IMG/VR virus record: IMGVR_UViG_648276643_000012
Length of the DNA stretch: 4,505 bases
Reading direction: 5' to 3' (one strand)
Origin: a virus
Taxonomy: Duplodnaviria; Heunggongvirae; Uroviricota; Caudoviricetes
This document shows, piece by piece, positions 1-3,330 of the stretch. How positions within the stretch are numbered: the first letter of the stretch is position 1; the number at the start of each line of letters is the position of its first letter. A program made the translations under genes and the position numbers. The notes beneath the pieces are model-generated. The model saw only the letters and a list, made by a program, of their open reading frames with translations. It was not told the origin of the DNA and ran no database searches.

Positions 1-420
1 ATGACGGATTATCAGCCATACAGGAAAGGAACTGTGCTTGCCCCAACTGGGCCATGCAATCATCTTCATGTGATTTGTAATGATCCTGTTTATTACCCCG
101 TTAACGATTGTTATTGTGTTTTAGTTGTTAATATTTCTAGTATCAAGGATGGGGTCCCCCACGATCCGTCTTGCGTCTTGAATTCCGGTGATCATCGCTT
201 TATCAAGCATCCAAGTTATGTTGTTTACGCTGAAGCTATAATTTGGCGAGTGGATAACATGGTTAGAAAGCAGCGATCGGGTGAGATTTCTGTTCATGAT
301 GATATGCCAGAAGCTACATTCAATAGAATTCTGGACGGTTTTGATATATCTGATGAAGTTACGCCAAAGAACCTTAAATTTAAAAATAAATATTGCGTAT
401 CATCTATTGATGATGAGTAA
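1..420 (+). CDS. Hypothetical Cys/His-rich protein (139 aa); low-GC accessory gene; the 5' end coincides with the window start so the true start is uncertain
   Basis: ATG at 1 to TAA at 418-420. Product has clustered Cys/His (CNHLHVIC, CYC, HDPSC, HRFIKH) and an acidic C-terminus. Hand-counted GC is about 39% (163/420), versus about 55% in a sampled 60-nt stretch of the minus-strand operon (1561-1620). No family recognised. Upstream region is not in the window. Confidence 0.5.
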   Translation: MTDYQPYRKGTVLAPTGPCNHLHVICNDPVYYPVNDCYCVLVVNISSIKDGVPHDPSCVLNSGDHRFIKHPSYVVYAEAIIWRVDNMVRKQRSGEISVHDDMPEATFNRILDGFDISDEVTPKNLKFKNKYCVSSIDDE

Positions 421-459
421 ACAACAGGAATTGTTTCGGTATAGCTTCTGGAGTTTTCT

Positions 460-633
460 ATGGAAGATCAAAAAGCAACCAAGCCACAGGTTAAGTTCGA
501 CACAATGAAAGCATTCGCAGGTATGGGTGCTGCTGTTGAAGTTCTGATGAAGGCTGCTCCTAATGCGTTCACTCACGCTACTGTCTCTGGTAAAGAGCTG
601 CAGGGTAAGCTTCGTCGTCGCAAAGCAGCATGA
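460..633 (+). CDS. Small hypothetical protein (57 aa), Ala/Lys-rich with basic tail RRRKAA
   Basis: Found by reading frame 1; it is absent from the ORF track, presumably for length. ATG at 460 is preceded by GGAG (450-453) with a 6-nt spacer; TGA at 631-633. It lies 39 nt downstream of the 1-420 ORF, so probably co-transcribed, and a strong terminator follows about 20 nt downstream. Confidence 0.5.
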   Translation: MEDQKATKPQVKFDTMKAFAGMGAAVEVLMKAAPNAFTHATVSGKELQGKLRRRKAA

Positions 634-652
634 TCATAGCTGGTGCTTTTTG

Positions 653-683
653 AAAACCCGCCTTTAGGCGGGTTTTTTCTTTA
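653..683. terminator. Rho-independent terminator, probably bidirectional, between convergent transcription units
   Basis: Perfect 10-bp stem AAAACCCGCC / GGCGGGTTTT with a TTTA loop, followed on the + strand by the T-run TTTTTTCTTT. On the - strand the same hairpin is followed by a shorter run (UUUUCAAAAAG). It sits immediately after the stop codons of both the + strand 57-aa ORF and the - strand 681-962 gene. Confidence 0.75.
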
Positions 684-962
684 GTGATGTTCTTTGCCCT
701 TCTGTTTGCCTGTTCTGACCTGTTCCCACTCGATACGTCCTTCTTCTCGTCTTTTGTCTATGTATTCCGCAAGATCCTGAATATTGATGCAACGTTTTGC
801 TTTTTGTGATGTGCCGATGCGATATGTTGGAACGGGCAACTTACAAGCGTTTGCTTTTGCTTCTGCCGTGGCTGGACTCATGCCAAAGTACTTTTGGCTA
901 ACTGCTGAGAGTTCAATGTTAGGGGTATTGAATTCAGCCATCAGTAAAAACAAGGTGTTCAT
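681..962 (-). CDS. PrtN-family / excisionase-like small DNA-binding protein (93 aa); last gene of the minus-strand operon
   Basis: TAA at 681-683. ATG at 962 has GGAG with a 6-nt spacer (GATGGAGAAAATTATG). The track's longer GTG start at 989 and the ATG at 974 lack an SD. N-terminus MNTLFLLMAEF... and overall size resemble PrtN-type (pyocin activator / phage excisionase-like) proteins as I recall them; not searched. Confidence 0.65.
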   Translation of the reverse strand: MNTLFLLMAEFNTPNIELSAVSQKYFGMSPATAEAKANACKLPVPTYRIGTSQKAKRCINIQDLAEYIDKRREEGRIEWEQVRTGKQKGKEHH

Positions 963-998
963 AATTTTCTCCATCAAAACCGGCTGCACCCGGGAAAA

Positions 999-2139: not shown

Positions 2140-2328
2140 CTATTTCACCTTAATCTCAACATTTCGCAGCTTTAGCTCTACTGGCAGGTCTGACTTTCCG
2201 GTTAATGCTAATGCGAGATTTTCTGGAGTAATGAGAGCAGTTATTGTTCTACCCATCGCAAGGCGGATAATCAGCCTTATCTCTTCGTCACAAGCGCCAG
2301 GGCGAATAATTGATATTTGTCCGTTCAC
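2140..2328 (-). CDS. Small hypothetical protein (62 aa from GTG; 76 aa if the upstream ATG at 2370 is used)
   Basis: GTG at 2328 lies 1 nt after the TGA of the upstream gene, with AAGGAG 6 nt upstream. The alternative ATG at 2370 would overlap the upstream gene by 41 nt and has no SD. TAG at 2140-2142, 2 nt before the next gene's ATG. It fills an otherwise empty slot in a tightly packed operon. No family recognised. Confidence 0.45.
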   Translation of the reverse strand: MNGQISIIRPGACDEEIRLIIRLAMGRTITALITPENLALALTGKSDLPVELKLRNVEIKVK

Positions 2329-2329
2329 C

Positions 2330-2848
2330 TCACTCTCCTTTAATGCGAATGCCAGCGGCGCGGGAATCATTCCATCGCTTTACTTCTTCACGAATTACGT
2401 CAATGCATTCTTTCGAATCCATTAGGTAATCTTCATCAAAAAGACGTTCCTGTTCGTTTTCTATCGCAACAATGATTGCTTCAACTAACTTTTGTGCCTG
2501 AGAACCACTTTCTAACTCTGCTATGCGCTTACTCCCATCAGAGATAACACCTTCGTAATATTCACGCTGCTCGTTGAGTTTTGATTTTGCTGCCTCCAGT
2601 TCGTCCAGTAGTGCAATCACATCAGGGTCACTGTCATCAACTACTGTTACGCGTGATTTTTCATAATGTTCGTCGGCAAGTGTTCGACCAATTTTGAAAT
2701 CTCCATCACCACCATAACTGGAGCAGGCATAAACGACATGTGCTCCAGATATACGCTGTATTGACATTTCCTCGCCACAAACAGAGCATTCAGGTACTGG
2801 CTTAGGTGAATAACGTTCCCGTAGCGTCTGATAATCAATCTTGCTCAC
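2330..2848 (-). CDS. Hypothetical phage protein (172 aa) with N-terminal CxxC Zn-ribbon-like motif and coiled-coil; possibly ead/Ea22-like
   Basis: GTG at 2848 overlaps the TGA of the methyltransferase gene (GTGA) with AGGAGG 7 nt upstream. Contains PECSVCGEE...H...YACSS (C-x2-C ... H ... C), an acidic stretch (VVDDSDPD) and the segment ALLDELEAAKSKLNEQ, which resembles a motif I associate with ead/Ea22-like proteins (from memory, unverified). Stop TGA at 2330-2332. Confidence 0.7.
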   Translation of the reverse strand: MSKIDYQTLRERYSPKPVPECSVCGEEMSIQRISGAHVVYACSSYGGDGDFKIGRTLADEHYEKSRVTVVDDSDPDVIALLDELEAAKSKLNEQREYYEGVISDGSKRIAELESGSQAQKLVEAIIVAIENEQERLFDEDYLMDSKECIDVIREEVKRWNDSRAAGIRIKGE

Positions 2849-3330
2849 TGGTTGCCCTCCTTCATAAAAATAATCCAGTGGGTCTTGTCACCCTTTCCTG
2901 TTCGTTGACCGATAACAGGCTTTCTGTCGGTCAGTGCCAATATCTGGCGAACAGGTATTTGCGTTTCATTCCATTTAAAAATCAGAACGCCGTATGGCCG
3001 CAACACACGAAAGGCTTCTTTAAATCCCTGCCGCAAATTATCACGCCAGGTATCTTTATTCAGCCGTCCATATTTCTTTCCCATCCAGGCGTTATCACCA
3101 ACACGCTCAAGATGCGGAGGGTCGAATACAACAACCGGAAACGATGCGTCTGCAAATGGTAATGCACGAAAATCTGCTGTCAGGTCAGGGCTAATTATCA
3201 GCCGTCGTCCATCACACAATGTGTGCTCTTCCTTTCTGATATCGCTAAATATCGCCCGGTCGTCATTCTTATCGAACCAGAACATGCGACTGCCACAGCA
3301 CATGTCGAGGATTGTTGCATGTCCAGTCAC
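2845..3330 (-). CDS. Small SAM-dependent DNA methyltransferase (about 161 aa), amino-methyltransferase type with DPPH catalytic motif; probably orphan
   Basis: GTG at 3330 overlaps the TGA of the upstream gene (GTGA) with AGGAGG 6 nt upstream. The track's ATG at 3363 (172 aa) lacks an SD and would overlap the upstream gene by 37 nt. Motif I-like ILDMCCGSRMF (encoded about 3280-3312) is followed some 55 aa later by DPPH (encoded 3112-3123). Stop TGA at 2845-2847. Confidence 0.8.
   Translation of the reverse strand: MTGHATILDMCCGSRMFWFDKNDDRAIFSDIRKEEHTLCDGRRLIISPDLTADFRALPFADASFPVVVFDPPHLERVGDNAWMGKKYGRLNKDTWRDNLRQGFKEAFRVLRPYGVLIFKWNETQIPVRQILALTDRKPVIGQRTGKGDKTHWIIFMKEGNQ

Follow-up and report, generated by a model that had tools for sequence, protein, structure and literature searches.

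Do the two small genes at the left edge of this lambdoid prophage form a functional pair, and which of their neighbors do they belong with? The DNA examined here, referred to as the window, is a stretch of 4,505 nt from a member of the Caudoviricetes (IMG/VR record IMGVR_UViG_648276643_000012), and it begins with two short open reading frames, ORF139 and ORF57, named for the lengths of their products. A reading of this sequence alone had proposed that they constitute a compositionally foreign, two-gene cargo cassette, possibly a toxin/immunity, defence or anti-defence pair, and that they were the best candidate in the window for an undescribed system. The results described below divide the genes differently. 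ORF139 very probably encodes PanT, the toxin component of a type II module, PanA-PanT (PanAT), whose antitoxin gene (panA) is located immediately before the first position of the window. The 'two-gene cassette' is chimeric, having been put together from the 3' genes of two separate modules.

Prophage setting and gene layout

The window is 100% identical to the corresponding sequence of Escherichia coli 20Ec-P-124; there, a complete lambdoid prophage has integrated in dusA, and the window makes up its left end. An orphan 5' fragment of dusA is carried at attL, while the integrase gene is found at the far right end of the prophage, beside the restored dusA. When this locus (L001) was compared with phage Lys8385Vzw, whose genome is circular, the att crossover fell at about position 5171, so that 830 bp separate it from the first position of the window downstream. 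The order within the prophage is attL, 261 bp, panA, ORF139, ORF57, a terminator and xis.

Both ORF139 (positions 1–420; 139 aa) and ORF57 (460–633; 57 aa) are on the plus strand and converge with the minus-strand early-left operon, just as the sequence-only reading had described. The last gene of that operon is xis (681–989, minus strand; the RefSeq call is shorter, 681–962), which specifies a PrtN/pyocin activator-type excisionase (PF11112, E = 4.2e-23; phrog_1300 excisionase, 8.4e-40) and forms the right-hand, conserved backbone edge of the cargo slot. Besides the excisionase, Pfam matches in the minus-strand operon included an Rv2179c-like 3'-5' exonuclease, DUF551, Ead/Ea22, a SAM methyltransferase and a YfdR-like HD hydrolase. 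Between the convergent ORF57 and xis there is an intrinsic terminator (652–677, plus strand) of the form GAAAACCCGCC-TTTA-GGCGGGTTTTT followed by a T run. It has an 11 bp stem with six G-C pairs, a U run in the transcript and a centroid fold of -17.3 kcal/mol (z = -2.5 against shuffled sequences), and can be rated a good terminator. No terminator was found between the stop codon of ORF139 and position 652, so that ORF57 is probably co-transcribed with panAT in this prophage. In the region upstream of panA, an operator search detected no inverted repeat, and the sole promoter-like site (L001 5278–5306) was no better than expected from shuffled sequence.

The base composition of the two ORFs is not alike. 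ORF139 is 38.8% GC, in agreement with the figure of about 39% that had been counted by hand, and panA is 43.1% GC, but ORF57 (48.3%) matches the phage backbone. Low GC is therefore confined to ORF139 and panA, and the pair as a whole cannot be called compositionally foreign. The comparison value of about 55% given earlier for the operon was also too high, as GC is 46.6% in the remainder of the window (43.5–49.4% for individual genes) and about 51% in the prophage.

The ORF139 family and its conserved residues

ORF139 matches phrog_19071 (3.4e-31), a family of conserved length. The N-terminal sequence MTxYxPYRKGT is conserved and favors initiation at the ATG at position 1, the start used in the sequence-only reading, over the RefSeq start, a GTG at position 34. 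An HMM search of all representatives returned 3258 cluster representatives (50% identity clusters) at E ≤ 1e-3. In E. coli the gene is strongly conserved: it is present in 207 complete genomes with 97.9–100% DNA identity, is full-length with all the family-invariant residues in place, and is also carried by two named phages with deposited genomes. One ORF139 homolog (L028) is disrupted.

Near-universal residues of the family are H21, L22, D55, C58, H65, F67, S72, Y76, G113 and S117. When 133 distant cluster representatives were compared, H21, D55, C58 and H65 proved to be retained in no fewer than 127. Among close relatives the invariant set is H21, H23, C26, D55, C58 and H65, with H23 and C26 restricted to them. 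The clustered Cys/His residues that had earlier suggested metal binding are present, but C19, C37, C39 and C132 are variable. No zinc-finger or zinc-ribbon family of Pfam matched ORF139. The clusters are partly meaningful, but they appear to be set on a predicted barrel of the MazF type (see below), and not in a known zinc-binding family. H21, D55, C58 and H65 might serve in catalysis or might make up a metal site. Searches of Pfam (E ≤ 0.1), NCBIfam and PADLOC with ORF139 gave only sub-threshold noise (ICMT, DapC), and the ORF139 profile run against PDB sequences likewise returned only noise, with no MazF at E ≤ 10.

ORF139 is linked to an upstream Panacea gene

Directly upstream of the window is a gene of 190 aa (L001 5432–6004), annotated in RefSeq as a 'Panacea domain-containing protein' and here designated panA. 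It was invisible to the sequence-only reading because the window begins at the ORF139 start codon; all that the window retains of panA is positions 1–4 (plus strand), comprising the last base of the final sense codon and the TGA stop at 2–4. [quoted passage not shown] The panA stop codon and the ATG of ORF139 overlap as ATGA, which suggests that translation of the two genes is coupled.

The generality of this arrangement is apparent from a scan using one genome per species, which gave 26 loci with ORF139 relatives, 24 of them with upstream DNA. These relatives span the Enterobacterales, Methylococcales, Sutterella, Sphingomonadales, Rhizobiales, Rhodobacterales and others. At every one of these 24, tblastn placed the end of a PanA homolog 0–215 nt 5' of the toxin gene, and ORF57 was found at none of them. 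In Kosakonia and Pluralibacter, xis directly follows the toxin gene. No Pfam family was common to the 82 flanking ORFs at the 23 other-species loci that were scanned for this. Since PanA is always present, ORF57 never, and the flanks share no family, PanA and ORF139 can be regarded as a self-contained mobile pair, and this pair is conserved in Gamma-, Beta- and Alphaproteobacteria within neighborhoods that are otherwise unrelated.

The Panacea domain of PanA is shared with the antitoxin of SocAB, a type VI toxin-antitoxin (TA) system of Caulobacter. PanA scores just 13.5 bits against the SocA equivalog NF047745 (cut-off 190), on which ground membership of SocAB was rejected; ORF139 is unrelated to SocB, and PanA antitoxins neutralise their toxins through direct binding (PMC8832971). 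None of the defence models in PADLOC-DB v2 matched PanA, ORF139 or ORF57 at E ≤ 0.1.

Predicted fold of ORF139

A structure search had been proposed as a check on the function of ORF139, and it was informative. An AlphaFold2 model built from 35 homologs had a mean pLDDT of 91.7, and the best 50 Foldseek matches to it in the PDB were all RNases of the MazF family (MazF, MoxT and Kid). When a viral library was searched, the matches were to 'PemK-like' phage proteins. A fold of the MazF/Kid/CcdB type is accordingly a confident prediction for ORF139.

In other respects ORF139 departs from the classical MazF/PemK/Kid toxins (MazEF, PemIK/Kis-Kid). Sequence similarity is not detectable: there is no match to PF02452, and an hhalign comparison of the ORF139 family with Kid and EndoA gave a probability of 0.1%. 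The partner is PanA and not a MazE/PemI antitoxin of the AbrB/RHH type, and the model has an additional C-terminal region of three helices (residues 84–131). The conserved residues differ as well, the invariant ones being His/Asp/Cys/His and not the Arg/Thr pair of MazF, with no invariant Arg. In a register drawn by eye, H21 lies near R29 of MazF, and S46/S47 near T52. As H21 falls at about the position of the MazF catalytic Arg, by eye only, the chemistry may be His-based, and because H21, D55, C58 and H65 differ from the canonical Arg/Thr, RNase activity of ORF139 is only an analogy.

Another reading is that ORF139 has a MazF/CcdB scaffold but does not act as an mRNA interferase, and would instead be a CcdB-like gyrase poison or, with H21/D55/C58/H65 forming a Cys-His-Asp or zinc center, an enzyme directed at another target. 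We consider this unlikely. CcdB was rejected as the best model for ORF139, as its fold score is below that of MazF; the locus has no CcdA-like partner, and the relative of ORF139 that has been tested blocks translation, not DNA replication as in CcdAB.

Correspondence with PanAT toxin cluster T6

That relative comes from the work of Kurata et al. 2022 (PMC8832971), who reported that Panacea antitoxins pair with dozens of toxin clusters. One of these, T6, has a validated pair from Pseudomonas moraviensis (PanA WP_083354365.1 and PanT WP_083201923.1), in which PanT is toxic and is neutralised by PanA, the two proteins form a complex by pull-down, and toxicity is accompanied by a selective loss of 35S-Met incorporation (PMC8832971). 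A MazF/PemK/EndoA-like structure was predicted for T6, and members listed for the cluster, with overlaps of -4 or -1, are from Pantoea septica LMG 5345, Yersiniaceae bacterium 2016Iso4, Proteus vulgaris and Pluralibacter gergoviae (PMC8832971).

Homologs of ORF139 are present in two of these T6-listed strains, P. septica LMG 5345 (L008, 56% identity) and 2016-Iso4 (L007, 55%). The former reproduces the recorded 4 nt overlap with PanA, and in the latter a PanA match lies directly upstream. A search for WP_083201923.1 itself, using both the extended homolog set and the HMM search of all representatives, did not recover the validated toxin, and reached only a relative in Pseudomonas sp. KK4. The KK4 protein is 40% identical to ORF139, and directly upstream of its gene, with a 1 nt overlap, is a PF13274 PanA beginning V-IFSDQKVAQ, compared with MIFSEQKVAQ in the validated P. 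moraviensis PanA. Judged from these sequences, the ORF139 family corresponds to PanT cluster T6, the tie to the validated toxin running through shared cluster membership and the KK4 relative.

Several features of the validated pair are likewise found at the E. coli locus, including a Panacea (PF13274) antitoxin that lacks an N-terminal DNA-binding domain and has a similar N-terminus, the order of antitoxin then toxin with a 1–4 nt overlap, and a toxin of about 130–140 aa with a predicted MazF-like fold. Two differences should be noted. Of the Pseudomonas relatives examined, even the nearest shares no more than about 40% identity with the E. coli ORF139, and the latter occupies the att-xis slot of a lambdoid prophage, while the P. 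moraviensis pair was scored 'NotPhage'. An accession search of the tables and supplements of PMC8832971 did not find the E. coli PanA/ORF139 pair. The earlier expectation of an undescribed system is nonetheless not upheld, as PanAT and toxin cluster T6 have already been described and, in part, validated (PMC8832971). The toxin/immunity guess fared better: ORF139 is best read as a TA toxin, but the partner is PanA and not ORF57.

Alternatively, the E. coli copy might be non-toxic, or a relic in decay, and serve no function today. There is a precedent in Dataset S1 of PMC8832971, where phage-borne, PanA-linked T1 candidates, including pairs from E. coli and Salmonella phages, are recorded as 'not Toxic', and the disrupted homolog at L028 is in keeping with such decay. 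Against this stand the completeness of ORF139 and of its family-invariant residues, its near-identity across the 207 genomes, its presence in the two named phages and the conserved overlap with PanA, which together make a relic a decidedly unlikely explanation.

ORF57 and the exchange of cargo cassettes

ORF57 encodes a conserved basic protein that is not part of PanAT. It matches phrog_2741 (1.6e-35), a family of conserved length with the invariant core KFDT..AF.GMG.A..L.KA.P, and it found no match in Pfam, NCBIfam or PADLOC. The AlphaFold2 model has a pLDDT of 64 and a single helix at residues 15–32. In a survey of 5426 complete E. coli genomes, ORF57 was present in about 562–565, and the gene upstream of it was PanAT in 205–207 of these and a gene of 177 aa in 357.

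The reason for the two neighborhoods is seen when phages carrying PanAT are compared with prophages of the mEp460/O157:H7 type. Homology is lost about 68 bp rightward of the att core and picks up again at window position 447, 13 nt 5' of the ORF57 start codon, so the boundary of the swap is at 446/447. Positions 421–446 (plus strand) are consequently the 3' end of the 1.2 kb PanAT cargo cassette, and the Shine-Dalgarno-like TGGAG (449–453, plus strand), 6 nt 5' of the ORF57 start codon, belongs to the conserved backbone. Partial matches likewise begin at position 447/450. Across the exchange, 1.2 kb containing PanAT (L031 3239–4446) is replaced by a 0.8 kb cassette (L029 2698–3500) with the 177 aa gene, mEp460 gp23 (phrog_4350). 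The PanAT pair is swappable cargo between attL and xis of an mEp460-like lambdoid prophage, and the earlier description of a cargo locus at the prophage edge was sound to that extent, the same slot holding a different cassette in related phages.

Outside E. coli, ORF57 has a gene of 177–179 aa located 140–200 nt upstream of it in every other genus examined. In Salmonella these two genes are at the att-xis slot, as in E. coli, and in Enterobacter, Franconibacter, Hafnia and two further contigs they are found in the Q-holin slot, so that both of the classic cargo slots of lambdoid phages are represented. The upstream neighbor matches mEp460 gp23 in Salmonella (89% identity) and Hafnia (64%), and was identified elsewhere by size and position only. 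From its neighborhoods in E. coli and the other genera, ORF57 usually travels with phrog_4350 and lost that partner here when the PanAT cassette took its place. Phage Eeyore has a 42% identical homolog of the 177 aa protein, and ORF57 was not detected there.

With these data, the proposal that ORF139 and ORF57 make up a self-contained toxin/immunity or defence pair, the first as a metal-binding Cys/His protein, becomes extremely improbable. Only 39 nt separate these neighbors, which have the same orientation and one terminator for both, and in the E. coli genomes and phages seen with PanAT the ORF57 frame is unbroken. They are not co-inherited, however: ORF57 is absent beside all 24 of the other ORF139 homologs (with xis taking its place directly after the toxin gene in Kosakonia and Pluralibacter), a different gene precedes it both in five further genera and in the 357 genomes of E. 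coli, the 446/447 breakpoint falls between the two, and ORF139 is strictly linked to PanA.

A three-component system particular to E. coli phages, with ORF57 assisting PanAT as a regulator, a chaperone or a second antidote, would accommodate the likely co-transcription and the observation that all 205–207 E. coli PanAT copies of the ORF139 type adjoin ORF57. Every PanAT copy examined is at the same dusA prophage end, though, and these are 94–100% identical, so one swap, in the ancestor of a single phage lineage, accounts for the association. Elsewhere PanAT is a two-gene unit, third genes are not generally involved according to Kurata et al. (PMC8832971), and ORF57 has a conserved partner of its own in other settings. 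We therefore regard a third component as very unlikely.

For ORF57 we offer the tentative, and somewhat doubtful, suggestion that phrog_4350 (177–179 aa) and phrog_2741 (57 aa) make up a two-gene moron module not described before, of which ORF57 would be the small member, left here without its partner. The phrog_4350 protein (mEp460 gp23) had no match in Pfam, PADLOC or PDB sequences, though judged by eye it may have a GNAT-like motif. Together the two genes could constitute a new system for defence, for anti-defence or of the toxin-antitoxin kind. The retention of ORF57 beside PanAT may mean that it still works alone, for example in providing immunity against the 177 aa protein of superinfecting relatives.

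Proposed mode of action and significance

The reading of ORF139 as PanT leads to the following scheme. The panA, panT and ORF57 genes would be transcribed together toward the terminator at 652–677, with translation of PanT probably coupled to that of PanA through the ATGA overlap. By analogy with the validated P. moraviensis T6 pair, PanA would bind and neutralise PanT, and if PanA were lost or triggered, free PanT would arrest growth by blocking translation. On the same analogy, the block would most likely be brought about by RNA cleavage by a MazF-like endoribonuclease. What PanAT does for a lysogen is a matter of speculation, the candidates being phage exclusion (abortive infection), prophage retention, or both. 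Panacea as a sensor domain has been put forward by Ernits et al. 2023, as a hypothesis only.

About 4% of complete E. coli genomes (207/5426) carry ORF139, including those of O121:H19 STEC, APEC and ETEC strains. It is annotated as a 'hypothetical protein', often with a truncated start, and could be relabelled as PanT paired with PanA. The clean exchange of PanAT and the phrog_4350 gene at one att-proximal slot provides a tidy case of cargo turnover among lambdoid phages. The pair formed by phrog_4350 and ORF57 is the least understood piece. For cluster T6, which so far has one validated representative, from Pseudomonas, ORF139 adds a prophage-borne member that is native to E. coli, and this would make both the chemistry of the invariant His/Asp/Cys/His residues on a MazF scaffold and a role in phage exclusion easily testable in the native host.

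Integration site and second cargo locus

The prophage has inserted into dusA at its 5' end (positions 5117-5171 of L001 and 35857-38080 of L002, two loci of this prophage in the host genome). The attL junction keeps an orphan dusA start (MPAESHTVYPAYRFSIAPMLD), and at attR the integrase abuts the restored dusA. Because of this integration site, with the integrase at attR, int and xis lie at opposite ends of the prophage and the cargo slot falls between attP and xis. A second cargo locus of the same prophage is found downstream of the Q antiterminator (L002 8066-9240), where a subtilase-family AB5 toxin binding subunit and a scabin-related ADP-ribosyltransferase are annotated. The two genes sit at the classic Q-holin position for morons and resemble a toxin pair of the ArtAB/pertussis-like kind.

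Annotation and possible decay of PanAT genes

The RefSeq/PGAP start of ORF139 (panT) is a GTG at window position 34, giving a protein of 128 aa. With this start the protein loses 11 family-wide conserved residues (MTDYQPYRKGT), and the ATGA overlap between ORF139 and the upstream antitoxin gene, panA, goes unseen. The GenBank record of phage Lys8385Vzw places the start at the ATG at window position 1. Several Pasteurellales members of toxin cluster T6 (Histophilus, Haemophilus, Pasteurella) carry the RefSeq name 'terminase' (PMC8832971, Dataset S1, cluster T6 rows); these are small proteins of the PanT type, and the name is probably a misannotation. In a Bathymodiolus platifrons symbiont (L028 3980-4273) the reading frame of the PanT homolog is disrupted and closes after about 37 codons, with an intact PanA upstream of it, which suggests that the toxin has decayed and the antitoxin has been kept. 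A cassette variant in NZ_AP027637.1 (4284657-4285646) is 94% identical over only 83% of the PanAT cassette, with two adjacent features annotated as SocA-family and SocA-domain proteins, and may represent a rearranged or split panA allele.

ORF57 and its upstream partner gene

ORF57 (phrog_2741; window 460-633) is preceded by a gene for a protein of 177-179 aa in every context examined outside the PanAT phages (L029 2784-3687, L030 2781-3684, L032-35 2274-3174, and also L036-38, L039-44 and L046-47). In E. coli and Salmonella the two genes lie in the att-xis slot; in Enterobacter, Franconibacter and Hafnia they lie in the Q-holin slot. The upstream gene is phrog_4350 (mEp460 gp23) in the three cases that were checked, mEp460, Salmonella and Hafnia. 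It had no match in Pfam, PADLOC or PDB sequences, and together with ORF57 it looks like an undescribed two-gene moron. By eye, the phrog_4350 protein gives the impression of a putative GNAT-like motif.

In Hafnia prophages, a gene for a RelA_SpoT-domain protein of 319-352 aa is found between the antiterminator and holin, just upstream of the phrog_4350-ORF57 pair (L036 1150-2109, L037 1051-2109, L038 995-1954). The protein matches the PADLOC candidate PDC-S33 (E-value 1.2e-112), and the gene may be a further piece of cargo in the slot that holds the pair, with a toxSAS-like defence role.
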